Under the pieces are notes generated by a model. It was not told the DNA's origin and did no database searches. It saw only the letters and a program-made list of their open reading frames with translations. From IMG/VR virus record IMGVR_UViG_3300045988_151382: DNA of 48,925 nt. The stretch is one strand, 5' to 3'. This DNA is from a virus (lineage: Duplodnaviria > Heunggongvirae > Uroviricota > Caudoviricetes). Position 1 is the stretch's first letter; every line of letters begins with the position of its first letter. Shown here one piece after another: positions 11,938 through 48,925 of this stretch. The position numbers were made by a program, and so were the translations under genes.

Positions 11938-12981
11938 TTAAACCACCTTAGCCACCAGATAGGCATCAGCCACACCAGGATTAGGCAGTGGAGATGACTT
12001 CATGGCAACATAACGGCCAGCCGGCTTACGAGTTACCCAGGTGTCTGGAACTCGTGGTGACTCAACAATCGTTAGAGTCTTTTCGGCGTCATCTACAAGC
12101 TCTACAGCACCATACAGCATCGTTCCTCGACCAGGAGAGCCAAAGAGGATCTTATCTTCCGGTACTAATGATTCAGGTTTTCCTGTTTTATCATTGCGAA
12201 TAAGTTCGTCGTAACCATAAAAATCGACACCTTCAAGATTGCCATAATGAGTTACGCCTTCTTCTAACTCTTTAGGCTCAATATACCCAAGCTCTTTTCG
12301 GCGATTATCAAGATATTTAGTTACTGCTTCATTTTTAACGAAGGCATCAACAACTTTTGCGCCCATTACGGCAACACGAGGTGTAAAACCTGAAGTTAGT
12401 GATACCCGACGTTTCCAGTTGCGAACATTGACTAACGGATCTGATTTTGCTGCACTCCATAAATCATCACCTGTCAGTTCAAGATATGGTTTATCTCCTT
12501 CCTCTTCAGGCCAAAAATAAACTGTGTCATCCACTCCTTCACCAACAATATCAACCTGCCCCGTAAACAAGACTTGTGCACACATCCATTCTTCACGGCG
12601 GTTAACCATTTCATCAAGCTCAAGCAAATCTTTACCTAATTGCTCGGCGGCTCGTTCTGCTGGCGATTTTGCGTTGTAAATATTCTCACCCGGAAGCCTG
12701 TTTAAAAGCAGCTCGGCTGTTGTTACCAAATCAGGTGCAACAAGTGGTGGCTCCAGAGTTCTCGTTACAAAGCCGCGTCGCTCAACGGTTTTTGAGCCAA
12801 AACCTTTACCAACAAACGGAGCCATAGTACGGCCACCGCGAACAAAATCCAGATCAACTTTCTTTGTATTAAAGGTCTGAACACCAGGAAAAAAGGTACG
12901 AAGAAGAAAACGACGAGCCTTGAAATTCTGAATAACAGGCTCAAGCATCGTACGTCGTTCAAAAATATCAATATTCGGCAT
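11938..12981 (-). CDS. Major capsid protein, lambda gpE-like
   Basis: 347 aa; size and position after decoration protein gene; recalled resemblance to Phage_cap_E family. Confidence 0.7.
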   Translation of the reverse strand: MPNIDIFERRTMLEPVIQNFKARRFLLRTFFPGVQTFNTKKVDLDFVRGGRTMAPFVGKGFGSKTVERRGFVTRTLEPPLVAPDLVTTAELLLNRLPGENIYNAKSPAERAAEQLGKDLLELDEMVNRREEWMCAQVLFTGQVDIVGEGVDDTVYFWPEEEGDKPYLELTGDDLWSAAKSDPLVNVRNWKRRVSLTSGFTPRVAVMGAKVVDAFVKNEAVTKYLDNRRKELGYIEPKELEEGVTHYGNLEGVDFYGYDELIRNDKTGKPESLVPEDKILFGSPGRGTMLYGAVELVDDAEKTLTIVESPRVPDTWVTRKPAGRYVAMKSSPLPNPGVADAYLVAKVV

Positions 12982-23222: not shown

Positions 23223-23253
23223 GAAAATAAAAAGCCCCGCGACACCGCGAGGC
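23223..23253 (-). terminator. Rho-independent terminator (minus strand)
   Basis: GC-rich stem GCCTCGCG/CGCGGGGC with 4-nt loop followed by TTTTTATTTT on the minus strand. Confidence 0.5.
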
Positions 23254-23261
23254 TGTAAGAG

Positions 23262-23925: not shown

Positions 23926-23951
23926 AAAAAAGCCCCGGCAATTGCCGAGGC
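23926..23951 (-). terminator. Rho-independent terminator (minus strand)
   Basis: Stem GCCTCGGC/GCCGGGGC with AATT loop followed by TTTTTT on the minus strand. Confidence 0.55.
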
Positions 23952-23974
23952 TCGTTGTTCGTTATCGTTACGGT

Positions 23975-24175: not shown

Positions 24176-24441
24176 TCATCATCTCCTGCCGCACATACAA
24201 CCTCACAAAAAACATCAGCGGAATGTTTCTTTTTGAATGAATGGCGCTCAAAACCGCACTCAATATCAGGCGCAAAAACATCCACCACATACGGTCTTTC
24301 AGAATGTTTGTTTTCCCAACGATAAACCGTAGTGACGTTGAAATGTTTTAACGCTTCACGGTACTCAACGCTGCCCGTCAGGTTTTTTGAGGTCAGGTAT
24401 TGCAGGAGGTTTTTTACTACTTCACGGTCTTGTACTTTCAT
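24172..24441 (-). CDS. Hypothetical protein, first gene after promoter cassette copy 1
   Basis: 89 aa ORF; ATG preceded by GGAG within conserved leader. Confidence 0.45.
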   Translation of the reverse strand: MKVQDREVVKNLLQYLTSKNLTGSVEYREALKHFNVTTVYRWENKHSERPYVVDVFAPDIECGFERHSFKKKHSADVFCEVVCAAGDDE

Positions 24442-24553
24442 CGGGTTATCTCCGGTTTAACCAGGGCGGGTATCGCTCGGTTTCGGGTATAACCATAGGA
24501 AATTTTTTCCCACCTGTAAAGCACTTTTTATATAAATATATAATTATATAATT
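24442..24553 (-). promoter_or_regulatory. Conserved promoter-plus-leader cassette, copy 1
   Basis: In gene orientation: AT-rich motif, TTTACA, 17-nt spacer, TATGGT, then a conserved ~50-nt leader ending GGAGATAACCCGATG; near-identical copies at 32944..33060 and 41984..42096. Confidence 0.55.
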
Positions 24554-25141
24554 CTATGCCACTTGCCAGAGAGCATCATGCAACTGGATACCTCCATTGC
24601 ACTGGTTGCCCCAGCCATGCCAACCATCAGGTAAATCACCGCGAGCAAACAGCTCAATACGAGGAACATCACCTAACAGCCTTACCAGCTTGTCACGAAC
24701 CACATCAGGCTTCCGAGAATGCTCCAGACGAGGCGATGTAAACGACTGAATGATCCCCGCATCAAGGCGGGTCGGCAATTTGCCTTTTACCGCAAACAAG
24801 CAATCTTCACTGTTTGCACGAGTCATATGCCCCATCCCCATCACCAGCTTATCTGGTTGTCGGCTACCACATTTGTTCCATGTGAAGCCCTTCATGGTCA
24901 TAAGCCTGAATCCCCATGCTTTCACCACCAGCAACGCTTCTTCTGGCTGAGTCGGAACCCACCACATGGCCAACAAACACGATTCAGGATTAGCAAGCTG
25001 CCAGACAGGAATACGAGCAATATCCTCAGCTTTCATCGTTGGATACTTAAAACCAGCTCCACGATTCCCATCCTTACACTTATCTTTGTATTCCCAGGGG
25101 GGATCTGCATAAATCAGATTAAACAATGCAATTGCCTCCAT
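24554..25141 (-). CDS. MT-A70 family DNA N6-adenine methyltransferase
   Basis: 195 aa; N-terminal YADPPWEY motif (DPPW catalytic motif of the MT-A70 family). Confidence 0.7.
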   Translation of the reverse strand: MEAIALFNLIYADPPWEYKDKCKDGNRGAGFKYPTMKAEDIARIPVWQLANPESCLLAMWWVPTQPEEALLVVKAWGFRLMTMKGFTWNKCGSRQPDKLVMGMGHMTRANSEDCLFAVKGKLPTRLDAGIIQSFTSPRLEHSRKPDVVRDKLVRLLGDVPRIELFARGDLPDGWHGWGNQCNGGIQLHDALWQVA

Positions 25142-25449: not shown

Positions 25450-25525
25450 TGGTGGCCCCTACCGGATTTGAACCGATGACCGTGCGATTATGAGTCGCCT
25501 GCTCTAACCACTGAGCTAAGGGGCC
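25450..25525 (-). tRNA. tRNA with CAU anticodon (Met or Ile2/lysidine type), CCA encoded
   Basis: Minus-strand sequence GGCCCCTTAGCTCAGTGGTTAGAGCAGGCGACTCATAATCGC...GGTTCAAATCC...AGGGGCCACCA; 7-bp acceptor stem, D-loop AGCTCAGTGGTTAGAGC, T-loop TTCAAAT. Confidence 0.8.
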
Positions 25526-25663
25526 ATATTTGATCTGTTTGTCTGGTGTGGCGCCGCGCACGAAAATCCCAGCCAATAAATTCAGGATTTTTGGGCGCGG
25601 CGGCATATCAGACAAACATGGTTGATGCGTGCGCCCATGAGAAAAGCGCATAGAATGTTGTAA

Positions 25664-25698
25664 CTATATATTTATATAATTATAGAAATATATATTAC
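25664..25698 (-). promoter_or_regulatory. AT-rich 17-bp-class motif upstream of the tRNA
   Basis: TATATATTTATATAATTATAGAAATATATAT; member of the dispersed ATTATAGATTTATATAA-like motif family. Confidence 0.4.
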
Positions 25699-25904
25699 TT
25701 TGGGCAGTTGATTTCCCATGCCCTGTTATGAGCCAGAATATCTTTCTTTGTCTGGCGGTCCATAACATTGATGTCGTGATCAGTCAGGTAGATGGGCTTT
25801 ACCCAATCACAGGCGGTATCAACCACCACCGGGACGCTTCCACGACTCCCGCAGCTCGCGATCAACATCGTCATCAGCCATATGGTTAACACTCTGCTGT
25901 ACAT
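25695..25904 (-). CDS. Outer-membrane spanin lipoprotein (Rz1-like)
   Basis: 69 aa; signal peptide ending in lipobox LIASC; overlaps the 3-prime end of the Rz-like gene. Confidence 0.6.
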   Translation of the reverse strand: MYSRVLTIWLMTMLIASCGSRGSVPVVVDTACDWVKPIYLTDHDINVMDRQTKKDILAHNRAWEINCPK

Positions 25905-27314: not shown

Positions 27315-27345
27315 AAAAAAAAAGCCCCGCCGAAAAAGGCAGGGC
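27315..27345 (-). terminator. Rho-independent terminator immediately upstream of the lysis cassette (minus strand)
   Basis: 8-bp stem GCCCTGCC/GGCGGGGC followed by nine T on the minus strand, then SD GAGGA and holin ATG. Confidence 0.6.
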
Positions 27346-27491
27346 TTCATAAAGCAACAAATTACGCGGTAATCGCTTAACGCAGTTTTACTACGTTAAA
27401 TGAAACACTACACCCAGTTACCACCTAAAACAAGGTTTCTTCATAAAAAAACCTTCAAAATGTGGTTGATCGATCAATAAAAAAACAATAC

Positions 27492-28457: not shown

Positions 28458-28952
28458 TCACTCTCCTTTGATGCGAATGCCAGCGGCGCGTGGCACATTA
28501 ACTTCCACGATGCGCACTGTTGGTTTGTACATCTCAATCTCTGTCAGCCAGTCAGCTCCTGTCATGCGCTTTTCCGCATCGCCATTAGTCCACTGAACCG
28601 GTACACCAATAGCCTTCATCGCGATTTCTATTTCCCCGGCAATGGCGCTTTTTCCGCAACCAGTAAAACCAGAAACAACGACAAGAACTTCACCTTTGGC
28701 TGGTTTTATTTCCCGTGCTTCCAGTTCTGCAATGCGCTTTTTGTCTGCTTCCCGTTCATCCAGTAGTGCCAGCACGGTTTCTGGTCCGGCCAGAAATTTG
28801 AAGGCGTTGAGCGCATCAATATCCACACCGTAATCTTTAAGTTCCTGTTCACTTAACAAATCATCATCAGCTGGCAACATTAACAGGCGTTCCATTGCTG
28901 GAATTGCACGTTCCGCCGCCTCACGCAGTGCCTGGTAATTAATTTCGCTCAT
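28458..28952 (-). CDS. Ea22-like lambdoid accessory protein
   Basis: N-terminal MSEINYQALREAAE motif recalled from lambdoid Ea22-like family; shares terminal blocks with the next two genes. Confidence 0.45.
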   Translation of the reverse strand: MSEINYQALREAAERAIPAMERLLMLPADDDLLSEQELKDYGVDIDALNAFKFLAGPETVLALLDEREADKKRIAELEAREIKPAKGEVLVVVSGFTGCGKSAIAGEIEIAMKAIGVPVQWTNGDAEKRMTGADWLTEIEMYKPTVRIVEVNVPRAAGIRIKGE

Positions 28953-31529: not shown

Positions 31530-31828
31530 GCCACAGCCCCTCTCAACGGCTTAACTTTGGCTAATAAGGTGTTAAACAACATGGAGTTAGGATTCATGCC
31601 AAATGGCAATTCCGGTTTAGCGGAGTAGTACAGGCAACCATTTATTTTCCTGGTTGTTATCTGTCCTTCGGCAACCATGCTTCTCAGTCTGCAACGCATA
31701 GAGTTCTGCGACACACCAATGTGTTCCGCGATTACGTCCACTTTTGAACATGGGTGATCGGTCAGGAAATTAATCACATCTTGGGGGTTAATAATTTTGC
31801 GTTTCATTGTCGAGGCCTCCTTATACAT
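31526..31828 (-). CDS. Putative DNA-binding protein (winged-helix-like)
   Basis: 100 aa; segment VIAEHIGVSQNSMRCRLRSMVAEGQI resembles an HTH; preceded by AT-rich motif and AAGGAGG SD. Confidence 0.4.
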   Translation of the reverse strand: MYKEASTMKRKIINPQDVINFLTDHPCSKVDVIAEHIGVSQNSMRCRLRSMVAEGQITTRKINGCLYYSAKPELPFGMNPNSMLFNTLLAKVKPLRGAVA

Positions 31829-31884
31829 TTATATAAATATATAATTCTATATACAGCGGGAGACATCCCGCCGTAGACTTACTG

Positions 31885-32943: not shown

Positions 32944-33060
32944 TTTATTCATCAGATTTCTCCGGTTTAACCAGGGCGGGTATCGCTCGGTTTTGGGTAT
33001 AACCTTAGGAAATTTTTTCCCACCTGTAAAGCACTTTTTATATAAATCTATAATTATATA
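32944..33060 (-). promoter_or_regulatory. Conserved promoter-plus-leader cassette, copy 2 (immediately downstream of Q-like gene)
   Basis: Same architecture and about 90 percent identity to copies at 24442..24553 and 41984..42096. Confidence 0.55.
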
Positions 33061-33122
33061 TTTATAGATTTTCCGATATTCCCGGTGCCTACAAATCACC
33101 AAAACAGCTCAAAATGACACTT

Positions 33123-33500
33123 TCATTCTCTTCTCTTTTTCAAGTAGTCGACAACATACGCCCTGGCTTTTGCCAGCTTCCGGCGATACTGTCTGAGACT
33201 AAGAGAAAGGGCGTGGGCTTTATCAATATGCGGTGCATTTATGTCGAGGCCCCGAATCTCCCACGCCCCGTATTCAATTCGGACAACCAGCGCCGCAGTC
33301 TCATCAACTACCGTGAGGGCCGTCACCGCTCCCTCGATACTGGTTTCCAGTGAGTCATTTGGTGCGCCGCCCCCTCCGGTAAACTGGCAACGCGTAACCA
33401 TCATCATTTCTAACATCGACGCGAAACCGCTACGGGCGTTGCAGCCATTGCGCACCCACAGCGCCCATAGCTCAAACAAGCTATCCAGATCGCGTCTCAC
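33123..33500 (-). CDS. Putative antitermination protein Q (82/QuuD-like family)
   Basis: 125 aa; N-terminal RRDLDSLFELWALW resembles the RD..LE.WGAW start recalled for 82-type Q; lies directly upstream of a promoter cassette. Confidence 0.4.
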   Translation of the reverse strand: MRRDLDSLFELWALWVRNGCNARSGFASMLEMMMVTRCQFTGGGGAPNDSLETSIEGAVTALTVVDETAALVVRIEYGAWEIRGLDINAPHIDKAHALSLSLRQYRRKLAKARAYVVDYLKKRRE

Positions 33501-33503
33501 TGT

Positions 33504-33836
33504 TCAGATCTCCCGTATCGTGACGGGATAAAGCGCCTCTACCTGCTTTTTCTTCATGATGTAGACGTCTGTTCGCACACCTTTAGTGTCGACACAACCA
33601 ATAGTCCCATCGTCATAAAACACCATGAAATCAAGTTTATAAACGACACCACCTGGCAGATGAAAAGGCACCTGCATAAGAAACGTCACAACGCGGCCAG
33701 CTTTTCTCAGTAGCTTCAGTTCGCAGTAGTAATCAGCCTCTTTTTTGCTATCAAAAGCGATATCATCGACAACCGTTTTTTTATTGCCATATTTGCTTTT
33801 TCTGGTCGCTGGTTTGCGAAAGCCGGTATATCTCAT
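33504..33836 (-). CDS. DUF1064-like phage protein
   Basis: 110 aa; KYGNKKT...FDS..EA motif recalled from DUF1064. Confidence 0.35.
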   Translation of the reverse strand: MRYTGFRKPATRKSKYGNKKTVVDDIAFDSKKEADYYCELKLLRKAGRVVTFLMQVPFHLPGGVVYKLDFMVFYDDGTIGCVDTKGVRTDVYIMKKKQVEALYPVTIREI

Positions 33837-34237
33837 TTGGTATCCCCTGGTACTTCACCAAGACTAAGATCAAACCCAATTTCGTCTTTAACTGACTGCG
33901 GCAACAGCTCCCACGTCTGCGCACACAAAAATTCATCGGAGCCATAACGCTCAACAAAGCGAGCACAATTACTCAGGGGAGGGTGACGAACGGCAATATG
34001 CGGAGGCACACGCCCACCACTAGGCACAACACCGCGATGATGTGGTGCGCACAACCCAAAGCTATGGAAGTGGCAATTCTCATCAACGCTGCCGTAATCA
34101 GGATCGTGATGCAGCTCCGTCCACAGCTCTGGATTATCAATTTCACGGCCATCAATAATGCAAGCTATGCAACCCACGTGAGTGAGCACCGCTTGTATAT
34201 AAAGTTTCTCTTTCTTCGTTGGTGTACGTCCGTTCAT
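33833..34237 (-). CDS. HNH-type protein resembling P1 Ref
   Basis: 134 aa; GCIACIIDG...HH...CHFHSFGLCAPHH pattern matches the Cys/His arrangement recalled for P1 Ref. Confidence 0.5.
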   Translation of the reverse strand: MNGRTPTKKEKLYIQAVLTHVGCIACIIDGREIDNPELWTELHHDPDYGSVDENCHFHSFGLCAPHHRGVVPSGGRVPPHIAVRHPPLSNCARFVERYGSDEFLCAQTWELLPQSVKDEIGFDLSLGEVPGDTK

Positions 34238-34470
34238 CAGCGCCCCTTACCATTGATAAAGAGGTTGAACTCGTTAATTAACTGGACATACATGCTTCTG
34301 GCCGCGTAGTTCTTTGCCAGCTCTTTACGGGATGAGATCCCGCAAAACTCACGCAGAATCACAGAGGCCTCAGAACTGTTTGAAATGTTCTTCCCTGTTT
34401 TACTGGTCAGAAAGCGCCAGAATTGGGGATTCTGGCAATGCATCGCAGCACCGCGAACATAACCACTCAT
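34237..34470 (-). CDS. Hypothetical protein
   Basis: 77 aa ORF in the early operon. Confidence 0.3.
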   Translation of the reverse strand: MSGYVRGAAMHCQNPQFWRFLTSKTGKNISNSSEASVILREFCGISSRKELAKNYAARSMYVQLINEFNLFINGKGR

Positions 34471-34982
34471 TGATGCCCCCCGTCATTCCTGGTGCTTTTC
34501 ACCGTGCGGCTGCTTAAAAACCTGCCATCACGAGAAACAGACACATCTCGTTTACCCAACCTCATTTCACGGCGGTAACATTCAGAAAATGCCTCGTCCG
34601 GCAGCATATAAATGCGACGCTTCGCCTCCGAATCCAGAAGGGAACGGCTTGGAGTTACATATAAAAACGACTCATCAATAGGGACAAAACCACGAGCAAG
34701 AATTGCTGGCAGAATGCCAGGAAGAACGCAGAAAACAGCTCCACGATGCAGCAACATCTGGTACTCCATGACCTCCGTTATCCCCGTGACGACTGTTACG
34801 GTGTCACGTCTGTTACGGCTGGCAACCAGTCGCTGCACACGTCCAATTTTCTGCTCTACAGATAGACGTTTACTATCGTTATCAATATGATCGATAACAA
34901 ATCCTTTAATCGTTTGATCAAGGTAGTGCACCACCTGCGATTGAATCTGGTGATTATCACCAAAGAAGGCCAGAATCATCAT
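34467..34982 (-). CDS. Hypothetical protein
   Basis: 171 aa ORF in the early operon. Confidence 0.35.
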   Translation of the reverse strand: MMILAFFGDNHQIQSQVVHYLDQTIKGFVIDHIDNDSKRLSVEQKIGRVQRLVASRNRRDTVTVVTGITEVMEYQMLLHRGAVFCVLPGILPAILARGFVPIDESFLYVTPSRSLLDSEAKRRIYMLPDEAFSECYRREMRLGKRDVSVSRDGRFLSSRTVKSTRNDGGHQ

Positions 34983-35473
34983 TCCTCAAGCCTCCCAAGT
35001 GCTGAACGCCGGGCGTTGCTAATCTCCTTATGAATCAGCTCGATATCGCTGGAATCTTTATTCTTAAACTCCAGCACGGCAATCGCATCACGAACCTCTG
35101 AAACGGTTACGTGTGAGTGTTTCCAGCGAGCAATGAATCGCGGACCGCGTAGATTGCAACGCTCCGCAGGTATCCCCAGCTCAGAGAAAACCGCTTTCAG
35201 CCTTGATAAGCAGTTAACAGGGAGATTCCCTTTGATCTTGTTCTGCCGAACCGATGTGCCATCGCTACGCTGGCGCTGACGTTCGGCAAAATCTGCCGCC
35301 CATTGCTGGACATTAATCCGGCCTTCCGAATACGCCACCAGCAGCGTCAGGTTATCCGCACGAGGGAATCTCTCGAAGCGATACCAGGCACCAATCAGTG
35401 ATGACGTAAAGCCAAACTTTCTGGCAACACCAATTTGGCCTCCATTTTCATCAACCCACTCCTGAAAGGTCAT
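34979..35473 (-). CDS. Early regulator, Cro/YdaS-like HTH N-terminal domain
   Basis: 164 aa; divergent from the CI-like repressor across an operator-containing intergenic region. Confidence 0.45.
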   Translation of the reverse strand: MTFQEWVDENGGQIGVARKFGFTSSLIGAWYRFERFPRADNLTLLVAYSEGRINVQQWAADFAERQRQRSDGTSVRQNKIKGNLPVNCLSRLKAVFSELGIPAERCNLRGPRFIARWKHSHVTVSEVRDAIAVLEFKNKDSSDIELIHKEISNARRSALGRLEE

Positions 35474-35489
35474 TTAACTAACTCCAGTT

Positions 35490-35612
35490 AAACCACGATT
35501 TGTGGTATTAAAACCACAAATCGTGAGTTTTTCAATGGAAAAACAAAAAATAACCTTCTATTTGTGGTCTACCTCTCGTCTTGCCGTGTGAAAACCACTA
35601 AATGTGGTAATG
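35490..35612. promoter_or_regulatory. Immunity operator/promoter region with three ACCAC-N5-GTGGT operators plus a half-site
   Basis: ACCACGATTTGTGGT, ACCACAAATCGTGAG and ACCACTAAATGTGGT between divergent repressor and cro-like genes; TATAAAT -10-like element near 35612. Confidence 0.65.
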
Positions 35613-35645
35613 TATAAATAACCCCCCATTCACGATTGATGAGAA

Positions 35646-36308
35646 ATGAAAAGCAACGACGAGAACATCAAGAAAGAAATAGGTCTGCGCATTCAGACTC
35701 TACGGAAACAATCCGGCATGACTGCCGGAGATCTCCAGCAAGTCACTGGAATAGGCTTAAGCACCTTGCAGAACTATGAGGCCGGATTAAGACAACCATC
35801 TATACCTGCCATCAAGAAAATCGCGCACGCCCTGAAAGCATCAGCGCCTTATATCGCGTGCTTAACAGATAACCCGTTCCCACCCCAGAATACTAACGCT
35901 CCTGTTATTCCTGGGCTTGTAGCTATAAAAAATGACATAGCATCGCACGCCGGAGAAAAGCCAGTGCTGGCGATAGAACAGGAGATTCTACGAAGCAAGA
36001 ACATCAACCCATCGTCTCTGTCTGTTCTCCAGAGCAACGATGAGCTAAAGCTAATGTCACCAACAATATCCCCTGGCTCCCAAGTCCTGATTAATACAGA
36101 CGATACAGAGGTTCATGAGGGGATCTATGCCCTTGAAGACAGAAATGGCCTGGTTGTTTTGAGGCACTGTAGAGTCATACCGGGTGACAATGCTGTTATG
36201 CTGTCAACCGAAAGGGATGCTGAAATAAACACTAAGCATCTGAATAACGAGGAATTTAAGCGTTATAAAGTTCTTGGCCGCGTAGTTAGTGTTGTCAACT
36301 GGTTATGA
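35646..36308 (+). CDS. CI-like repressor (HTH_XRE N-terminus, LexA/S24-like C-terminal domain)
   Basis: 220 aa; N-terminal IGLRIQTLRKQSGMTAGDLQQVTGIGLSTLQNYEAG HTH; C-terminal beta-rich domain. Confidence 0.7.
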   Translation: MKSNDENIKKEIGLRIQTLRKQSGMTAGDLQQVTGIGLSTLQNYEAGLRQPSIPAIKKIAHALKASAPYIACLTDNPFPPQNTNAPVIPGLVAIKNDIASHAGEKPVLAIEQEILRSKNINPSSLSVLQSNDELKLMSPTISPGSQVLINTDDTEVHEGIYALEDRNGLVVLRHCRVIPGDNAVMLSTERDAEINTKHLNNEEFKRYKVLGRVVSVVNWL

Positions 36309-36784: not shown

Positions 36785-36905
36785 GGCTAACGCCCGCTTA
36801 TATGATTATAGATTTATATAATTATATAAAACACTTTTCATCCGCCAAAAAGTTGGTTATGCTTACCTCATTCTATAAATATAGATTTATAGAATTATAT
36901 AATCA
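36785..36905 (+). promoter_or_regulatory. AT-rich repeat block upstream of the partition genes
   Basis: Two copies of the TATAGATTTATA(T/G)AATTATATAA-class motif. Confidence 0.5.
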
Positions 36906-36925
36906 AACACATGGAGTCTCGACAA

Positions 36926-37579
36926 ATGACTATATCTGTAGGTATTTTCAACGGAAAAGGCGGCGTAACCAAATCAACCATTGCTCGTGCTTTAGCAGTT
37001 GCTTATGCAAAGGCTGGCTGGAATGTATGCCTGATCGATATGGATGTGCTTAACGGAACGGTAACGCGTTGGGTACAACGCAGAATGGCCAACAATATCG
37101 AACCTGCAATCGCGGCGCAGCCGTGCGGCACGCCATCACAAGTCCAGAAAATCATCGAATCAGAAGTATACGACCTGGTTATCGTTGATGGCGGTGCCTA
37201 CGCATCTGAATCAGTACCGAAGCTCTCTGAATTTCTGGATATGGTTATTTTGCCAACCAGATTCTCTACCGATGACCTGGAAACCACCGTTAACACAGCT
37301 CACGGCATCGTTAAAAAGGGTGTACCAATCAAGAAAATTTGCATGGTGTTTTCCGGCGCGGCTGAAAACGAAGCTGACTATATTGAAGCCCAAGAGTACC
37401 TGGCTAATACGCCATACTTTGTTGTCGATAAGTACATTCCCCACAAGCCAGCTCTGAGCAAAGCTCAGGATAAAGGCTTAAGCCTCATTGAGTGCTCATA
37501 CGTTGCGCCACGCAAAAAAGCAGACGACGTTATTCAGGGGATTATCAACCAGCTTGAGGCTCTGACTACTGCCGCGTAA
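36926..37579 (+). CDS. ParA-like partition ATPase (short type)
   Basis: Deviant Walker A GKGGVTKST near the N-terminus when started at 36926 (ORF track starts 36911). Confidence 0.7.
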   Translation: MTISVGIFNGKGGVTKSTIARALAVAYAKAGWNVCLIDMDVLNGTVTRWVQRRMANNIEPAIAAQPCGTPSQVQKIIESEVYDLVIVDGGAYASESVPKLSEFLDMVILPTRFSTDDLETTVNTAHGIVKKGVPIKKICMVFSGAAENEADYIEAQEYLANTPYFVVDKYIPHKPALSKAQDKGLSLIECSYVAPRKKADDVIQGIINQLEALTTAA

Positions 37580-38093: not shown

Positions 38094-38115
38094 AAAAAAG
38101 GCCCCCGAAGGGGCC
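38094..38115 (-). terminator. Rho-independent terminator (minus strand)
   Basis: Stem GGCCCC/GGGGCC with 4-nt loop followed by TTTTTT on the minus strand, just downstream of small ORF 38122..38244. Confidence 0.55.
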
Positions 38116-38121
38116 TAATCG

Positions 38122-38244
38122 CTACTTGCTGCTAATGTTTATCGTCACATTCAGAGCGTTATCAGTAATCTTCCAACCCTCTCCATGTGGCGTAAACAAA
38201 GCTCCAGTAACAACGATAAAAATACACATACAGTATTTTTTCAT
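38122..38244 (-). CDS. Small hydrophobic peptide (about 40 aa)
   Basis: MKKYCMCIFIVVTGALFTPHGEGWKITDNALNVTINISSK from internal Met of ORF 38122..38304; own terminator. Confidence 0.3.
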   Translation of the reverse strand: MKKYCMCIFIVVTGALFTPHGEGWKITDNALNVTINISSK

Positions 38245-38559
38245 TGTATGGCCCTTACAGGCCGTTTCACGGCATCCCCACCGACGAAAACAACGCGAGA
38301 GCAAGCACGGCTGCTTGTGCTTGCATGTACGGCAACGGAGAATCCTCCCCTAAAGTCGGTGCCCGGGTGCGAATCGGCGGGAAGGTCCACAGGTATTTTA
38401 CGATTATTTTAAGATTAGTAATAGGAAAGAAATTAAACGAAAAAACTCGTTTATTTTCACAAAATCAGTAACCTACCCACAATCTGTGAGTTTGCAGGCA
38501 CAACAAGAACCACAATTTTTTGAAGCATAATAGTGGACTATTATTACCTTTTGGGTAAA

Positions 38560-38840
38560 ATTAACTTGCTGCTTGTGCTTGCGTGGTTGTTTATACAACA
38601 ACGTAATGCTGAAAGGACCGCGAATCCGATCAGCACGAAAGAACCGTCCTCAATAGGGCGGTTTTTTTGTTTCTGCCTACCAATAAACCCACGCTATGTG
38701 GTTGTCTCTGTTAAAATCCCGCCGTATTGACATGAATGCGCCATTGGTGGACACTTTCCGAGCCGTAGCAAAATCTACGGTCGGGATTGGAACCCCGTAG
38801 ACACAATGGCGCATACCGCGTTAGCGGTTTTTTTATGCGT
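38560..38840 (+). ncRNA. Candidate regulatory RNA region upstream of the antirepressor operon; two intrinsic terminators
   Basis: Terminators at about 38644..38668 (ACCGTCCT/AGGGCGGT stem then T7) and 38815..38834 (ACCGC/GCGGT stem then T7); no ORF; repeated GATTGGAACC element. Confidence 0.45.
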
Positions 38841-39000
38841 AAAGCACTGCTACACCCAAATTATGGTGGGGCGTGCGGGGGAGTCGTAAGACTCGCCGGT
38901 TCGTCATTGTGTCCGGTAGTTCCAACCCTGCACGTCTCACCACCCAATGATTGGAACCTGACGGTGGTGAGTATCCTTAACCTTTAAGGGAATCATCACA

Positions 39001-39192
39001 ATGACAAACCTACCCCATGACTATTACGTCAACCTCGTAAAGATCCTTCTCAAGAAAGCCTCATACGCCGATAAATTCCGCCTGGCTGAAATCATCGAGC
39101 GCGAAGCTATGCGCATCGCCAGCAACGATAACGCTGTTTCTGTCGCAAAAATCTCCCTCGTAACCAAAGTAGTTATGGGAGGTGCAAAATGA
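39001..39192 (+). CDS. Small protein translationally coupled to antirepressor
   Basis: 63 aa ORF whose stop overlaps the ant ATG (ATGA). Confidence 0.4.
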   Translation: MTNLPHDYYVNLVKILLKKASYADKFRLAEIIEREAMRIASNDNAVSVAKISLVTKVVMGGAK

Positions 39193-40457
39193 AAACGCTT
39201 CCGACCGTTAACACCCTACAGCCTATCCTGCATAACCAAATCCCTGTCATTACTACCGAGTTACTGGCACAGCTTTACGGCGTATCTCCTGTACGCATTC
39301 GACAAAATCATCATGAGAATAAGGAACGCTTCATTGAAGGTAAGCACTACTTCAAAATTGAAGGTAACGAACTTCGAGAGTTAAAGCACAAAGTGACTCA
39401 AGATAATGATGTGAAGAACAAAAACTCTTTAAGAGATTCAGTTAATGACGCCCCCTCTAAAAGAGAGAGCGACGAGCACAGAGTAGTTTTAAACTACTCT
39501 GTTAACCACAAGGTAACTAAAAGTCACTCTGTGAAAATCGCCCGTAACGTTCGCTCCCTCATTCTCTGGACAGAACGCGGGGCTGCACGTCACGCTAAAA
39601 TGCTCGAAACCGATCAGGCATGGGATGTATTCGAACGGCTGGAAGACTGCTACTTCAACCAGAACGCGCAAACGGCCGCGACCGTAACCGTCTCACCAAA
39701 CAATGCTCGTGAGGTTGTCGATACGCTCAACGCTAAACCAATGTATTACGTTAAGGTGTGCAACAACGAGCCACTCACAACCTCAGCCGATGTTGCCCAA
39801 GCATTCAGCACCACAAACAATTCCATCGTTATGGCCATCGATGCGTTACGCATTCCTCGCACGGCTGCGGCGCGTCACTTCTTTAAAGAACAACGACCGC
39901 TGGAAGGAAGCGACCGCGAAATAACAATCTATCGCATGACAAAAGACGGATTTACCTTGCTCATGGAAAGTATCGACGGTCCAGGCGTGAAGGATATCAA
40001 GCTGGCCTACATTGAAGCCTTTAACGCTATCAGCAGCGTGTTAAAGGCAGAATACGAGCGAATGCTATACAACCGACTGTATCAGGAAACAAAGATTATC
40101 CGAACGGCAACAGAACATCATCGGCTATTAACGGAACCAAACTACCGCAAGACACTAATCAAAGAGTTTGACAAGGCGACGGAGAAAACTAAAGCGGCAC
40201 TAAATCTACCAACAATGACTAAAGATGATGTGATATCAGCCTTACTTCTTGATCTGCTCAGAAACGCCAGAGCACTTATCAGTTTTGACGAAAACCTGAA
40301 TCCTCAGCTCAAGCTACTACCACCGACAGGCAAAGTAGTCGACCAAGCAGATCACAACAGCATACTCAGCGTACTGGATGCAAACCTGCCAGCCAGGACA
40401 CTACAGGATCTGATAAAAACATGTGCTGATAAGCTGGCACAGAAAAGCAGACCATAA
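39189..40457 (+). CDS. Antirepressor (ORF6N/KilA-N-type N-terminal domain plus Ant-like C-terminal domain)
   Basis: 422 aa; N-terminal IPVITTELLAQLYGVSPVRIRQNHHENKERFIEGKHYFKIEG resembles ORF6N/Bro-N-type domains. Confidence 0.6.
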   Translation: MKTLPTVNTLQPILHNQIPVITTELLAQLYGVSPVRIRQNHHENKERFIEGKHYFKIEGNELRELKHKVTQDNDVKNKNSLRDSVNDAPSKRESDEHRVVLNYSVNHKVTKSHSVKIARNVRSLILWTERGAARHAKMLETDQAWDVFERLEDCYFNQNAQTAATVTVSPNNAREVVDTLNAKPMYYVKVCNNEPLTTSADVAQAFSTTNNSIVMAIDALRIPRTAAARHFFKEQRPLEGSDREITIYRMTKDGFTLLMESIDGPGVKDIKLAYIEAFNAISSVLKAEYERMLYNRLYQETKIIRTATEHHRLLTEPNYRKTLIKEFDKATEKTKAALNLPTMTKDDVISALLLDLLRNARALISFDENLNPQLKLLPPTGKVVDQADHNSILSVLDANLPARTLQDLIKTCADKLAQKSRP

Positions 40458-41602: not shown

Positions 41603-41983
41603 TTACTTAACGAGGAATAAAAATGGTTTATTGTTCGGCGGTGTAATCGGAGCTGGCTCGCTTTTGCTCATGCGATCAGTGTACCAGGCCAGCTCCTTGT
41701 CAAAGTAAGCCTGATTAAAATAGGCAATGAATGTAGTTTCAAATCCATAACGACCGCTAATACGCAGCATCTGATTGCCGTTCTCTGTTTCCAGGTATAC
41801 CTGGGCACGTTCCTGATTCTCCTTCAGCCAGGTTAAAGCCTCATCGCACGAGGACACACGATACTCATCATCGTAGCCGTCATCGATGCGGCTTGAAGAA
41901 GAACGGCAAATCACGCCAACAGAACCAGCCAGGATAGTTTGAATTTTAAGGAAAGCGTTTTTGCGGATTTTAATCATGCTCAT
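41603..41983 (-). CDS. Hypothetical protein, first gene after promoter cassette copy 3
   Basis: 126 aa ORF. Confidence 0.4.
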   Translation of the reverse strand: MSMIKIRKNAFLKIQTILAGSVGVICRSSSSRIDDGYDDEYRVSSCDEALTWLKENQERAQVYLETENGNQMLRISGRYGFETTFIAYFNQAYFDKELAWYTDRMSKSEPAPITPPNNKPFLFLVK

Positions 41984-42096
41984 CGGGTTATCTCCGGTTT
42001 AACCAGGGCGGGTATCGCTCGGTTTCGGGCATAACACTAGGAAATATTTTCCCACCTGTAAAGCGCTTTTTATATAAATCTATAATTATATAATTC
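41984..42096 (-). promoter_or_regulatory. Conserved promoter-plus-leader cassette, copy 3
   Basis: Same architecture as the copies at 24442..24553 and 32944..33060. Confidence 0.55.
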
Positions 42097-42104
42097 CATG
42101 AGCA

Positions 42105-44255: not shown

Positions 44256-45104
44256 TTAATGTTGGAGTGATTTCCAGGTCTTTCTTAGCCTGTTATAACG
44301 CTGCTCAACGAGGGATCGTAAATATGCAAGGTCAGCACCTGGATACATGCCATCAGCAAATTCCTGGCTAACCTCTCTAGTGATTTGATGACGAAGTTCG
44401 GCCTCTCCCTTTTCCCGGACAAGACGCGCAGCTCTCTCCGCTGCTTTCTGTTTTGCCTTTATCTCTCTGGCCGTCTTCCTCTGGCGCCATACATTCTCCA
44501 TCTGCTCCTGAATAACAATACGCTTATAATCAGCCTCCGTTATCGCTTTTTTAAGCCGTTCGCTATTCTTCGCATTGAAGTAATTAAGTTTCTGGCTAAC
44601 CGCACGTCTCCATGCTTGTTCAGTAATACCAACGGTTTCCAGCAGTTGATCACGAATCTCTATTTTCGCTGGCCAATACTGTTTATTCACCCGATCCCAG
44701 CGACGTTCATAATCAATAAAACCTAACGCTTTCAGTTGCGACAACGCCCTTGTACAGCGCGTTATAGACTTGTTCCCAGCTTCGGATACGGTAGACAGGC
44801 CGCAAAAATCAGCCAACGCCTCAGCACTAGCCAGAACCCGCTTAGAAATGATGTTTACATGGTGCAAAATCGCAGCGATCACAGCATTAATCGCCCGACG
44901 ACGATGCTCGTTTATCCGGCGCTTCCGCCCTGACGGTTGATTAACGTAGAACGCAACCTCACACGTAAGATCACGACCATTAATGCGCTGTAAAGCATCA
45001 GATAACACCAGCGGCAGCTTGTGCGTATGGTGCTTTGGAGGCTGGAACTCCGGCGACAAATTACAAACGTAAGCGGAACGTAGAGACGGCATTGGTCTAT
45101 CCAT
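44256..45104 (-). CDS. repA: Replication initiator RepA, IncFII RepA1-like
   Basis: Segment CGLSTVSEAGNKSITRCTRALSQLKALGFIDYE resembles recalled IncFII RepA1 block; start uncertain (ORF open to 45236, internal ATG at 45104). Confidence 0.65.
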   Translation of the reverse strand: MDRPMPSLRSAYVCNLSPEFQPPKHHTHKLPLVLSDALQRINGRDLTCEVAFYVNQPSGRKRRINEHRRRAINAVIAAILHHVNIISKRVLASAEALADFCGLSTVSEAGNKSITRCTRALSQLKALGFIDYERRWDRVNKQYWPAKIEIRDQLLETVGITEQAWRRAVSQKLNYFNAKNSERLKKAITEADYKRIVIQEQMENVWRQRKTAREIKAKQKAAERAARLVREKGEAELRHQITREVSQEFADGMYPGADLAYLRSLVEQRYNRLRKTWKSLQH

Positions 45105-45136
45105 ATGTTCGCTCTTGCGTCCACGGAAAACCAACG

Positions 45137-45229
45137 TATAATGGGAGTTGTCGAGGCGCCCATGGATTGTTGTTGTTGGTTTTCCGTGGATGTCGCAAGA
45201 AGCCCGCAGATTTATCTGCGGGCTTTTTG
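45137..45229 (+). ncRNA. CopA-like antisense RNA candidate opposite the repA leader
   Basis: TTGCGT-N16-TATAAT promoter, 15-bp inverted repeat CCACGGAAAACCAAC/GTTGGTTTTCCGTGG, then terminator GCCCGCAGA-TTTA-TCTGCGGGC-TTTTT. Confidence 0.5.
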
Positions 45230-45702
45230 TTTCCATATCTGGTCAGTTTCCAACCAGACACCCACAATCATAACCACGTTACGTGGTTTTAAGAGAACTC
45301 TACCACAACACTTTCGGTCATGCACGAAGTCTCTCACTGATCGAACGATAATCCACCAGTAAAAGGATCTAAATTGGATCTCGTTTTGCGAGCATCATAC
45401 TACTGGCCTAACTCCAGTCAATGATTCCCAGCCAGAAACCTGCGGTAAACTCATCGTTCAGCAATATGCTGTCCGGCTTCAAAGATAAGGTGACATCATC
45501 CCTTAACAGCGCGGCCAGTTCAGTTAAAGGGCTGTTCTGATTTAATGCTGGCCACTCATACCTGGTAATAAGTGGTCAGTCTTAACACTCACCATTTGAT
45601 TGCACCCGTGTTGACGATTTGTTACTGGATATCAGACACGCTGGATAGCCAGTAGAAACATACCATTAAAATTATTACAATAATTGGTCACATGATTATC
45701 TT

Positions 45703-46266
45703 ATGCTGAATAATAAAGATATGAATATTAATGAACTTAAAGACTGTATTCACTATGAAGTAATCGGTAGCGAGCGTCCTTTCTCCTGGCGAAAGGCAAT
45801 TGTTCGCGCAATAAAACATAGAAGGGTTCGTTATTTATTTTGGTGGCGCATAGCCAAATACCTTTTTGATAAAGGCGGATACTGTCGGAAGATTGCGGGA
45901 AAAATAGAACGTTTCATTCTTGATAAATATAATGTAACAGTCCCTTTAACTGTAAATATAGGGAAAGGCTTTGATATTTCTTATCTCAACAGTGTTGTTA
46001 TCGGTCACAAAGTAACAATCGGTGAAAATTGTTCAATTAAGCCCGGAGTAACTATTGGACTTCGCGGGGAATTTAATGATATGGATATTGTTATAGGGCA
46101 TAATGTGACCATTGGTTGTAATGCCACCATTCTTGGTGGCAAAGTGCGTATAGGAAACAATGTCACAATAGGTGCTCATGCATTGGTATTGCATGATATT
46201 CCTGATGATTCAACATTCATCACTAAATTTCAGTCTGAAGTTATCTGCTCGTCCTCCCGAACATAA
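45703..46266 (+). CDS. Hexapeptide-repeat (left-handed beta-helix) acyltransferase
   Basis: 187 aa; tandem hexapeptide repeats [21 protein letters not shown]...[34 protein letters not shown]; AT-rich codon usage. Confidence 0.7.
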
Positions 46267-46847
46267 CCCTGATTCATCAGCTCTGGCCATACGATATCCG
46301 GAGCTGTACTGGTGTCAATTCTACTCACTAATACTCTGTATTTTCTCCAGGAATCCAGTTGTGAATTTTCCTCGTTTGTTGCTATTTCAAGATTAACTGC
46401 ATCCTGCAGAATTGCGATGTTATCTGTTGCTTCCTGGATCAACCTTGCCTTTTTCTCTTCCGCTTCCCGTATCCGAAACAGTTTTTCTGCTTCCTCATCA
46501 TTCACCCAGGATACGCCGTCCCACTTCTGATACTCCCCTGCTGGCGACAACCAGGTGACATTCTCTGGTAGCGGTCCGAGTTCAGAAATAAACAATGCGT
46601 CCCCCGACGCCACGTCATAGACCGTTTTACCACGATGGTCTTCAACAATATTCCACGATTCATTTTCACTGTTAAAAACTGCCACAAAGCCAGCAGGAAT
46701 TTCCGGTGGGGCGATATCTGTAGAATTAGCTGGCAGCCCTGTATGAGGTGGAATATATGCGTCACCTTCACCAATAAACTCATTAGTTCCGGCCAGCAGG
46801 TTATAAATTTTTACGGTACGTGATTGTTCACTCATTCTGAATGCCAT
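46230..46847 (-). CDS. Tail fiber assembly protein (Tfa)
   Basis: 205 aa; C-terminal [15 protein letters not shown]...WPE motif matches recalled Tfa consensus; immediately downstream of tail fiber gene. Confidence 0.8.
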
Positions 46848-48836
46848 TATGCAAGCCTCACAATATAATTAAATGCGATGTTTTTAACGGTGTTTTCCGC
46901 GTTACCAGCAGCGTTAACGGTGATGGTGTGTCCATGTGAACCAATCTTAACAGAGTGCGTATGAGCGCCAATACCAACAGTGTGTGCATGTGCCCCAGCA
47001 CTTGTAGCGGTACCTGATACTGAGTGGGTATGTGCGCCAGAAGAAGGCACAGTTCCATTCCCCACCACCGTGCCACTTGATGAACCATCCAGCCAGTCGA
47101 AATTCATACCGCCACTGTTTGGTCTCCTTAATGGAACGGTATGAGTATGTGCGCCAGCACTATTTGCAGTACCAGATACATTGTGGGTATGTGCACCTGT
47201 GTTATTCGTTGATTTAGTACCGTAATCAAACGACGATGTGGTTTTCGTACCCAAATCCGTACTGGATGCGCTGGCACTGTGGGTGTGCGATTTAATGCCA
47301 TCCTGTTCCTGAGACAATACGGCCCGACCACTGGCGGGTTTGCCCTTGATTGTCCAGCCGCGCATATCTGGAATAACACCAGAAGGATAGGCAATAGCCA
47401 GTTTCGGATATGCTGCCTTATCAAACGTCTGCCCCTGCATGATTGCATAACCTGCAGGTGGCGTATCTGATGGCCACGGCAGCGGAACACCTGGCGGAAA
47501 CGCTTCAATATTTGCCGAGCCGTCAAATTTTACGCCGTTAATTGTCCTTGCCGTTTTCAGCTTTGTTGCTGTAGCAGCATTGCCGGATAGTTCGCCTGAA
47601 AGACCACCGCTGAATGTCTGTTTCGCCATCCATGTCTGAGCTTCGTCGATAATTGGCACACGTCTTGTCGTGATCGTGCGGCTTCCCGGATTTCCTGAAA
47701 TGCGAACCATAAAAAAGCGGTAGTTGGCTTTACTTACAGTGCTGCGCCATACATGCATTGAGCGTCCCGAACCAGAATCATCACTCGGACCGACTGAGAT
47801 GTTTATCAGGTTGCCATCAATGACGCCCCAGTCCATACCGTCGGGAATATTGGTCATGTTATCAAGCCGAACGGTTATCAGACTGCCCGGCACAAAATCG
47901 TAGGTCTGCCAGTCCAGGCTGGTGAGCTTTGCCACAGCACCGCCGATACCCAGATTCAGGGGAAGTGAATACGAGGTGTAGACTTCCCGCCATTCGCTCC
48001 ATGAGCTGCCGGTAAAGACGCGCTCAAAGGTGCGGCCTTTAAGGGTTGTACCTGTTCCGGCAGTTGTATAACGCTGCCATACATTAACACCATCAAACCG
48101 CCTCAACACTTCCAGAATGCCGAGTACAGTCACGCCGTTTCCGTCCAGTACTGGACCGTTGGTCGCTTTACCTGTAACGCTGTAAATACCTGGTGAGGTT
48201 ACATCATTCAAATCACCTTCGTAATAACGACTCTCTGACTGATGACCGACTCTTAACCACGGTTCCCACTGCGGATTTGATGCATCCCAGCTTGCCGCAA
48301 GACAGCGGACATACATATTTCCACGGCGAGTGGTATAACGTTGCGTTCTTCCATAATTTCCGCCTTCGAGGATCTCAAGCATCCCCTGAGCAAAGCCGCC
48401 TTCCTCTGGATAATTGCGTTCATATGAAGCTATAGCTGAGCTACTGTTACGCCATAAACCAAGATGCTCAGCGGCTCCAAGCGTATTCAGGTCTATAGTC
48501 GTACTCAAAGGGCGGGTAGCAGATTGAGTGTGACGCCATACGCCCCACGGACCATCAGTGCCATTCCACTTATTGGCGAGTTTACGCATGTATACATTGC
48601 CGTCTCTCGTGGTAAAGCGTTGCGTACCTGCAAAATGGCCGGCAGCAAAAACCTCAAGCACACCGACAGCATTATCTTCCGGGAAATTTTTCTCCAGTGT
48701 TGCGTTGGTGGATGTTGCTTTAGACCAGATACCTGAATAAGCCTTAACAGGACCAAACGTATTCAGATCAGCATCAAGCGGCATTTCGCCATTGTTTTTC
48801 ATAAACGTCAGGCTGGTAACGCCAACATTGTCCAGA
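46847..48836 (-). CDS. Tail fiber protein, C-terminal portion (continuation of 1..836 across the circular junction)
   Basis: ORF track 46847..48802 is the internal-Met part; frame stays open upstream through 48836 and joins position 1; C-terminus has repeated GAHTH(N/S/T)V His-rich motifs. Confidence 0.75.
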
Positions 48837-48925
48837 AAAGCTGATTTATCCTGGATATCTGCACCGTTCTGATTTTTCGCCAGACGTGAATTTGCGTTGT
48901 CATTTGCTGCCTTGACCGCTTTTGG
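48837..48925. repeat. Terminal overlap: exact copy of window positions 1..89
   Basis: 89 identical bases at both window ends, coding frame preserved across the join. Confidence 0.85.

Follow-up and report, generated by a model that had tools for sequence, protein, structure and literature searches.

A Ref-family nuclease, a DUF1064 protein and a Q21-like factor in the early operon of a phage-plasmid lacking recognisable phage replication genes

How is a temperate phage replicated during lytic growth, and how are its late genes turned on, when a lambda-type early operon carries nuclease genes and a Q-like gene and no recognisable phage replication gene? The question is raised by positions 33123-34237 of IMGVR_UViG_3300045988_151382, a Caudoviricetes record of IMG/VR that was analysed here over its full length of 48,925 nucleotides (nt; the window). 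The element is a myovirus-type phage-plasmid with an IncFII-family RepA, a ParA and a toxin-antitoxin pair. Three open reading frames (ORFs) lie within this region on the minus strand, encoding a Ref-family HNH protein of 134 amino acids (aa; 33833..34237), a DUF1064 protein of 110 aa (33504..33836) and a Q-like protein of 125 aa (33123..33500). They are tightly packed: the Ref gene has base 34237 in common with the preceding gene, p77, and overlaps the DUF1064 gene by 4 nt, which is separated from the Q-like gene by 3 nt. The region is the promoter-distal half of a repressor-controlled early operon. Taken as a whole, it is probably an operon similar to that of lambda PR but devoid of O and P, combining a Ref nuclease, a DUF1064 protein and a Q21-like factor with replication initiated by RepA.

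The Ref-family and DUF1064 nucleases

The product of 33833..34237 is a core-only member of the Ref (RecA_dep_nuc) family of HNH nucleases. Against the Pfam model PF16786 it scores 45.6 bits (E 8.4e-12), well above the gathering score of 26.9, with residues 6-112 aligned to model positions 1-102 of 103. It also matches phrog_2321, ‘Ref-like RecA filament endonuclease’, as well as the P1 Ref structure 3PLW (E 0.0016), and a profile of 13 Ref-like homologs compared with P1 Ref gave an hhalign probability of 95.8%. The Ref-like identity proposed in a first-pass annotation, which quoted a Cys/His pattern that is indeed present, was therefore upheld by the profile comparison.

The phmmer and hhalign alignments pair C23/C26, H43/H44, C55/H56, C63 and H66/H67 with P1 C96/C99, H112/H113, C122/H123, C130 and H133/H134, respectively. 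These computed alignments end at P1 R143; H85, within an invariant V-R-H motif, was paired by eye with the catalytic histidine of P1 V152-H153. Among the 13 homologs there is no variation at C23, C26, H43, H44, H56, C63, H66, H67 or H85, while C55 (P1 C122) is alanine in three of them. The sequence thus holds both the zinc Cys/His residues and the catalytic histidine of an HNH beta-beta-alpha-metal core.

Whether this protein acts on RecA-bound DNA has to be weighed against several features. It starts at the position of P1 Ref residue 76, the start of the globular domain, and hence lacks the basic, disordered N-terminal DNA-binding tail of some 76 residues present in P1 and phiW39 Ref. Deletion of this tail lowers the activity of P1 Ref about 100-fold, and the tail is needed for DNA binding (PMC4330346). 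Moreover, RecA dependence is extrapolated here from proteins that are about 40% identical over 68 aligned residues. One could therefore envisage a RecA-independent enzyme (a host-DNA nickase, an anti-defence factor or a packaging helper) that has in common with P1 Ref the HNH core and nothing else; in addition to the absent tail, the distinct, conserved and acidic C-terminal extension would agree with this, as would the fact that RecA dependence has been demonstrated for the P1 and phiW39 proteins only. We nevertheless consider a RecA-independent role improbable. The score exceeds the Pfam gathering threshold for the Ref family, and the tail is a trait of the P1 subgroup rather than of the Pfam family, whose model spans 103 positions: three other phage members of 102-145 aa are likewise tail-less (those of MPK9 and ZX1 being 102-104 aa long), and the 186-aa P1 protein is the sole form with an N-terminal tail among the members scanned. 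P1 Ref truncated by 76 residues at its N-terminus continues to cut RecA-bound DNA when present at high concentration (PMC4330346). Finally, the gene is far from terminase and within the repressor-controlled early operon. By analogy, the 134-aa protein may well be a RecA-dependent nuclease.

The location of the gene in such an operon is to be expected, because P1 ref, a lytic gene under C1 repression, encodes a protein that amplifies SOS-triggered lysis (PMC4713147), and because in the staphylococcal phage PhiNM1 an unrelated RecA-dependent HNH nuclease is the product of an early gene required for phage DNA replication (PMC12817073). The view of the first-pass annotation that Ref would be unusual in a lambdoid early region did not hold, since short Ref genes occur in early or nin operons of other phages. 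In Pseudomonas phage MPK9 the order is repressor, O, P, NinB ... Ref (104 aa, 109 bits) ... holin, and in Klebsiella phage vB_KpnP_ZX1 a repressor/cro-like gene is followed by Ref (102 aa) and then by an endonuclease I-like protein with weak similarity to DUF1064 (BLASTP E 6e-6 to the DUF1064 protein of the window). Furthermore, the early operon of an integrative prophage includes a Ref gene (47% identity of the product) that precedes a VRR-NUC nuclease by about 1.6 kb.

The neighbouring gene (33504..33836, minus strand) encodes a member of the DUF1064 family, as the first-pass annotation had suggested, with a PF06356 score of 68.2 bits against a threshold of 24.7 (E 1.1e-18). It also matches phrog_190, ‘Holliday junction resolvase’ (E 2.6e-37), and a motif E33 ... 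D69 ... D83-T84-K85 can be read from its sequence, while a PDB sequence search returned chance-level matches only. Kosinski et al. predicted that the DUF1064 family is of PD-(D/E)XK type, related to T7 endonuclease I-like families (PMC1189080), and the protein is accordingly a predicted PD-(D/E)XK nuclease. The pairing of a Ref gene with a PD-(D/E)XK nuclease gene recurs in two unrelated temperate-phage early operons and suggests that RecA-directed nicking has a general role during lytic growth.

The Q21-like protein and the repeated promoter-like cassettes

The 125-aa protein (33123..33500, minus strand) is most readily related to the Q21-type antiterminators once its wider family is considered. 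A profile of 20 close homologs, run against a library of 1.8 billion proteins, retrieved 130 representative clusters, nearly all of small proteins (mostly 110-150 aa) and matched over most of their length. When the family was widened to 70 sequences, and only then, its profile reached Q21 (6P18, 6JNX) with E 5.9e-5, profile positions 4-85 corresponding to Q21 residues 14-93; all other PDB matches of this profile were at least 1,000-fold weaker. PF06530, the Q21/Q933W family according to Yin et al. (bioRxiv 10.1101/651190), is matched by 9 of the 70 members (E<=0.01). The NCBIfam model PA0613_fam is matched by 34 of them, Sigma70_ECF by five, and Sigma70_r4_2 and an NCBIfam ECF-type sigma model by four each. 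In the GTDB species genomes, relatives of the Q-like gene were found at a single locus.

The AlphaFold (AF2) model of the protein has a mean pLDDT of 76, and its top Foldseek matches in the PDB are Q21 (probability 0.8-0.94), followed by many sigma region 4 domains; its C-terminal helix-turn-helix (HTH) superposes on sigma region 4 with a target-normalised TM of 0.65-0.76.

Set against a Q21 relationship are the following. The protein has no Pfam match of its own at E<=0.1, so that by sequence it is not a member of PF06530, and it is 37 residues shorter than Q21. The model is disordered at residues 24-47, and in Foldseek it matches Q21 weakly (E about 0.3, TM about 0.5). A direct PDB sequence search with the protein gave no match. 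The profile built from close homologs alone retrieved nothing but a Tc3 transposase HTH (E 0.24). On balance we read the protein, from the profile evidence, as a probable real but distant homolog of Q21, at the level of a superfamily rather than of Pfam membership, and it is in this sense of remote homology that the earlier Q-like assignment stands.

A second relationship is to the NCBIfam PA0613 family (NF051483). The match of the window protein is weak (E 2.5e-4, 21 bits against a cut-off of 100 bits) and extends over the full length, residues 1-123 being aligned with 1-117 of 119. No function is assigned to PA0613 in the papers found. We take its gene to be placed just upstream of the holin gene in the R/F-pyocin cluster of P. 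aeruginosa; if that position is right, it would suggest that PA0613 is a Q-type late regulator.

A 121-nt block present three times in the genome, with 88-94% identity, provides the setting in which the 125-aa protein would act. The first copy (32948..33068, minus strand) starts 55 nt past the stop codon of the Q-like gene, carries TTTACA and TAAGGT and ends at the ATG of a gene for a DUF3560 protein. The second (24438..24558, minus strand) lies upstream of the head and packaging genes and was independently detected by a consensus scan as TTTACA-17-TATGGT, and the third is at 41980..42100 (minus strand); all three were delineated as a repeat family and by alignment. Each cassette consists, in the direction of the minus strand, of an AT-rich box, TTTACA, a 17-nt spacer with the palindrome GGAAA-AAA-TTTCC, then TAAGGT, TATGGT or TAGTGT, a conserved leader of about 45 nt, a Shine-Dalgarno sequence and the ATG of a gene. 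The same cassette is found in two or three copies in the relatives L018 and L019, whose Q-like proteins are about 90% identical, with the palindrome AGGAAA-ATA-TTTCCT. The Salmonella relative L005, which has a siphovirus-type tail and a Q-like protein of 57% identity, carries its own repeated promoter of the same build (at 12577, 18813 and 19933), the palindrome between the -35 and -10 elements being GTAACC-AAA-GGTTAC.

Strong intrinsic terminators sit downstream of the cassettes, within otherwise uninterrupted arrays of co-directional genes. One (27321..27348, minus strand; 11-bp stem with 7 GC pairs and a T9 tail) is directly before the holin gene, and a terminator scan placed another strong one at 23930..23953 and a further one at 23233..23254 (both minus strand), between cassette 2 and the packaging and head genes. 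Such a layout would make sense if a processive antiterminator were at work. The canonical Q cassette runs from the Q gene through a promoter and a terminator to the late genes (bioRxiv 10.1101/651190), and cassette copy 1 together with the terminators appears to follow that order.

Two further observations tell against antitermination at these sites: neither a sigma-dependent pause element nor a Q-binding element could be assigned at the cassettes, and, as Q21 binds direct repeats, a repressor operator is an equally good reading of the spacer palindrome. A direct repeat, ‘ATACCC’, in the leader was considered as a Q21-style binding element and rejected, as it is not conserved in L018 and L019; likewise the leader itself was rejected as a terminator, its hairpin being weak (about -10 kcal/mol) and without a U tract.

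The sigma-like features of the family raise the possibility that the protein is a late activator of the sigma-region-4 type, or a mini sigma-like factor, which would turn on the repeated promoters by binding to their AT-rich box or to the palindrome in the spacer. The fit of the C-terminal HTH to sigma region 4 and the family members that match sigma models favour this, and so does the recurrence in relatives of phage-specific AT-rich boxes beside the Q-like gene and several other promoters. However, the best profile match and the best fold matches among solved structures are to Q21 and not to sigma factors, 125 aa are too few to contain sigma regions 2 and 4, and the cassette already has a good -35 element (TTTACA) at 17-bp spacing. 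In addition, the several strong terminators inside the late units would require antitermination. An activator is thus a possible but doubtful alternative, and the 125-aa protein is better regarded as a putative Q21-like antiterminator.

The AT-rich box itself (approximately TTATATAAATCTATAATTATATAA) occurs at eight sites in the genome, including 25651-25701, 31808-31850, 36785-36827, 36858-36900 and the three cassettes, and two of the boxes are upstream of parA. In related phages, versions of their own follow the Q-like gene immediately and, in L020 at least, are also present near parA. The Q-like protein, the small partner protein of ParA and a nucleoid protein are candidates for its binding.

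Replication genes, RepA and the lytic cycle

The promoter-proximal half of the early operon comprises three genes on the minus strand, at the position that O and P occupy in lambda. The first, p164 (34979..35473; phrog_7452), is divergent from the gene of a CI-like repressor and has at its N-terminus a weak Cro/repressor-like HTH (phrog_35, E 0.0022 over residues 1-53). It is followed by p171 (34467..34982) and by p77 (34237..34470; phrog_5358), a conserved small early protein. The CI-like repressor (35646..36308, plus strand) has an HTH_3 domain (PF01381, E 4.6e-11) and a C-terminal CI-like domain (phrog_4, phrog_6201). The divergent control region between p164 and the repressor gene (35474..35645) contains ACCAC...GTGGT inverted repeats, which are candidate operators; an inverted repeat was located at 35494-35525.

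The thirteen related loci compared, with Q-like proteins of 34-93% identity, belong to genomes of Salmonella and Pantoea or to contigs of viral or metagenomic derivation. They have the same compact order, with ParA and the CI-like repressor on one strand and p164, p171, p77, Ref, (DUF1064) and the Q-like gene on the other, and none of the 13 has an extra gene between p164 and the Q-like gene. The full early set is present in 11; L024 lacks a match to p164, and L029 matches p77, DUF1064 and the Q-like gene only. The p77 gene is kept in all 13, and Ref is absent from a single locus, L029, which retains DUF1064. DUF1064 is absent from seven. ParA is found in 12 loci and an IncFII-family RepA match in five, to which the gene table of L005 adds one. 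The early module beside CI and ParA is kept across phage-plasmids with differing virion modules (L004, L005, L009, L018-L025 and L027-L029).

Approximately 50 early, middle and plasmid-side ORFs were scanned with Pfam and with PHROGs and/or NCBIfam. Neither these profile scans, nor the PGAP annotation of the plasmid of E. coli ATCC 25922, nor a genome-wide scan for Walker A motifs found an O/P, DnaB/DnaC, helicase, primase or RepL gene, and the early operon therefore has no recognisable initiator, helicase or loader gene of a lambdoid replication module. The claim of the first-pass annotation that no O/P-, helicase- or primase-like gene is present was in this way sustained, and profile searches brought to light no initiator or helicase among the unassigned early ORFs. 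The genome as a whole has just two classical Walker A motifs, neither of them in a protein of helicase size. One, GFTGCGKS (near 28670), belongs to the short C-terminal part of one of three tandem Ead/Ea22-like proteins (28458-28952, minus strand).

A replication protein might nonetheless have escaped recognition. No fold is assigned to p164, p77, the DUF3560 protein or several middle ORFs, and one of these may be a replication protein of an unconventional kind, which speaks against a genome free of phage replication genes. In the corresponding alternative, p164, p171, p77 or the DUF3560 protein would be an initiator, loader or primase, and RepA would serve plasmid maintenance only. P1 offers a precedent, with RepA for plasmid maintenance and RepL as a separate lytic replicon. 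Consistent with this alternative, p164, p171 and p77 are without known function at the place of O and P, p171 and p77 occur in all or nearly all of the 13 relatives and p164 in 11, and the DUF3560 protein matches phrog_19458, labelled ‘primase’, with E 1.1e-35 through its C-terminal half only. Beyond that label, however, no initiator, helicase, loader or primase match was obtained in Pfam, PHROGs, NCBIfam or PDB sequences, and a primase fold for the DUF3560 protein finds no matching Pfam, NCBIfam or PDB sequence; the PDB sequence searches with p164, p171 and the DUF3560 protein gave chance-level matches only. The candidate proteins are small (77-171 aa). No long direct repeat (minimum 30 nt) occurs in or beside their genes, short iterons not having been specifically searched for. 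As for p171, the strongest candidate in terms of position, its AF2 model (mean pLDDT 83.5, rising above 90 within the structured part, residues 1-140) was matched by Foldseek to gluconokinase and shikimate kinase, indicating a nucleoside-kinase-like P-loop fold, and a motif scan found no GxxxxGK[ST] (Walker A) motif in it; on the strength of the model, p171 is apparently not a helicase, primase or initiator. A second, hidden replicon thus appears rather unlikely.

The sole recognisable initiator in the window is an IncFII-family RepA (44256..45236, minus strand; PF02387, 149.2 bits). The match begins at residue 53, and the true start of repA is likely near 45104. A strong terminator hairpin on the opposite strand (45196..45229, plus strand) lies within the repA leader and is likely the 3' end of a CopA-like antisense RNA. 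In the repA region Rfam yielded a terminator-like hairpin only and no match to the CopA family. The replicon thus combines a RepA of the IncFII family with a leader hairpin of the antisense-control kind, the antisense RNA itself being presumed. A good promoter match, TTGACT-16-TATGAT, is found upstream in the repA leader at 45394-45421 (minus strand).

In the window, repA comes directly after the last tail and tail-fibre genes and in the same orientation (46230-48802 followed by 44256-45236). The same holds in L005 (1-4659) and L001 (7739-14049), and the arrangement is found in both myovirus-type and siphovirus-type relatives. Because repA is directly downstream of the tail-fibre genes and co-directional with them, terminator-resistant late transcription could run on into it. 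It is plausible, and supported by the conservation of the module, that lytic replication depends on RepA, and the view of the first-pass annotation that it must rely on RepA or host functions is to that extent reasonable.

From these elements a course of the lytic cycle can be proposed. Inactivation of the CI-like repressor would allow the early operon to be transcribed, and the core-only Ref nuclease would then cut RecA-coated or D-loop DNA, as P1 Ref does. Such cutting may reinforce the SOS response and induction, and the nicks or recombination intermediates may turn RepA-initiated circles into packageable concatemers. The DUF1064 nuclease would trim or resolve branched DNA, and would be dispensable, given that half of the relatives do without it. 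The Q21-like protein would load onto RNA polymerase at the three cassettes, the first of which is just downstream of its own gene, and render the polymerase terminator-resistant, giving read-through ahead of the lysis and morphogenesis genes. Replication would be initiated by RepA with the host DnaA, DnaB, DnaC and DnaG proteins; recombination, or late read-through into repA, may raise the copy number and yield concatemers for packaging.

A bolder proposal is that the canonical phage replication module has been replaced in this lineage and that lytic amplification is driven by an IncFII-type RepA freed from copy-number control. Two routes could lead to this. Q-dependent, terminator-resistant late transcripts might pass through the tail-fibre genes into the co-directional repA, which would be a natural counterpart of engineered runaway-replication plasmids; or RecA/Ref-dependent recombination might convert theta circles into concatemers. 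The p164, p171 and p77 proteins would act as couplers in such a scheme, to which we give little credence in this strong form.

The phage-plasmid and its counterparts among known systems

Bases 1-89 of the window recur identically as bases 48837-48925, so that it represents a complete and circularly permuted genome of 48,836 bp. Identical ends of 89 bp are those of a circularly permuted or terminally redundant molecule, and the late tail operon wraps across them. Nearly all genes are carried by the minus strand, in the order early operon, Ead/Ea22-like and unknown block, lysis genes, ParB-like and methylase genes, terminase, head and tail genes, then, across the window ends, the tail-fibre genes and repA. 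The plus strand has the CI-like repressor, ParA with its small partner protein, and an Ant/Rha antirepressor gene preceded by a C4 antisense RNA and isrK. The ParA partition ATPase is encoded at 36911..37579 (PF01656; phrog_164).

The early region is 97.6% identical to that of the Yersinia phages vB_YpM_39, 41 and 44, and E. coli plasmids of about 48 kb, among them the one carried by ATCC 25922 (48.5 kb), match the window over long stretches at about 98% identity. At an identity of at least 95% the early operon is present in 71 of 5,426 complete E. coli genomes, nearly always on plasmids of about 48 kb. A total of 1,221 plasmid matches mostly reflects common tail-fibre and RepA segments and is not a measure of family size. 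The element is outside all eight well-defined phage-plasmid groups of a 2024 review (PMC11652158); membership of the pSLy3 group was considered and rejected, that group being of about 110 kb and SSU5-like. No study of the element was found in the literature searched by the Yersinia phage names and plasmid accessions. It is a common, ordinary but little-studied element of known kinds.

Several other features of the genome were recorded. The isrK and C4 antisense RNAs (Rfam; 38762-38834 and 38859-38947, plus strand) are directly 5' of the ORF6N/Rha antirepressor gene (39189-40457, plus strand). This block looks like an immI module of the P1/P7 type beside a lambda-type CI switch, and the element therefore appears to have two immunity systems. 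A full-length match to the ryfA family of small RNAs (38094-38390, minus strand; 143 bits against a gathering score of 80) lies between the partition genes and the C4/ant region, and a tRNA-Met (CAT) gene (25450-25525, minus strand) is located between the lysis genes and an MT-A70 methyltransferase gene. The tail-fibre assembly gene and repA have between them, in the opposite orientation, a gene for a hexapeptide-repeat acetyltransferase (45703-46266, plus strand), at a place where the plasmid of ATCC 25922 has a recombinase and an invertible tail-fibre segment.

New here, as annotations and not as a mechanism, are the Q-like assignment and the repeated cassette. Ref and DUF1064 are already annotated in public records: both names are in RefSeq for the 71 complete E. 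coli genomes that carry the early operon, and PGAP labels the Ref gene ‘Ref family recombination enhancement nuclease’. What the hitherto unannotated 125-aa protein may usefully add is a link to Q21-type antiterminators for a family of about 130 sequence clusters that includes the PA0613 family. Replication by RepA only is worth testing without being exceptional, and current views stay unchanged unless that model is shown experimentally. A phage that apparently replicates with a plasmid initiator alone would be a simple system for the switch of phage-plasmids from copy-controlled to lytic replication, and one that is easy to study, as the quality-control strain ATCC 25922 is among the carriers.

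The element can be compared part by part with well-characterised systems. P1 Ref and the window protein have in common the HNH/zinc core, with the CxxC, HH, CH, C and HH motifs and the catalytic histidine (P1 H153, here H85) conserved, and both are borne by a phage-plasmid and under lysogeny repressor control. They differ in length (186 against 134 aa), in the 76-residue basic tail, which is found only in P1, and in the different, acidic C-terminal extension of the window protein, their identity being about 40% over 68 aligned residues; moreover, P1 ref has its own promoter next to cre, whereas the window gene is part of a polycistronic early operon. The short Ref genes of MPK9 and ZX1 are closer in form, being likewise core-only (about 100-135 aa) and downstream of a repressor/cro switch in an early rightward operon, and in ZX1, as here, Ref is directly followed by a PD-(D/E)XK gene, of the endonuclease I-like kind and weakly similar to DUF1064. 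Sequence identity to the window Ref is, however, about 30%, and in MPK9 the O and P genes that the window genome lacks are upstream of Ref.

The 125-aa protein resembles Q21 in its N-terminal 80 residues, which align with Q21 14-93, in a predicted sigma-region-4-like DNA-binding motif and in the placing of its gene upstream of a promoter-like cassette that leads through terminators to lysis and structural genes. Unlike Q21 (162 aa), it has no direct Pfam match; its promoter cassette occurs three times and is not immediately followed by lysis genes, the terminator that precedes the holin gene is reached about 5.7 kb further downstream, and no pause element or direct-repeat Q-binding element was recognised. 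With the PA0613 family it has in common a full-length alignment and, if the pyocin placing given above is right, a gene position ahead of late or lysis genes, and about half of its relatives (34 of 70) match that model, whereas its own 21 bits are far under the cut-off. The replicon is like those of the IncFII (R1/R100) type in its RepA family (149 bits) and in the opposite-strand terminator hairpin in the leader, as for CopA-type control, and unlike them in giving no Rfam CopA match and in being embedded in a phage genome directly after co-directional tail-fibre genes. As a whole, the operon departs from that of lambda PR (cro-cII-O-P-ren-nin-Q) in that O and P are absent, analogues of cII and N were not detected, and the prophage is a plasmid with RepA and ParA in place of an integrase; it has in common with it a divergent CI/Cro-type switch, small early genes, nin-type nucleases and a Q-like gene in last position.

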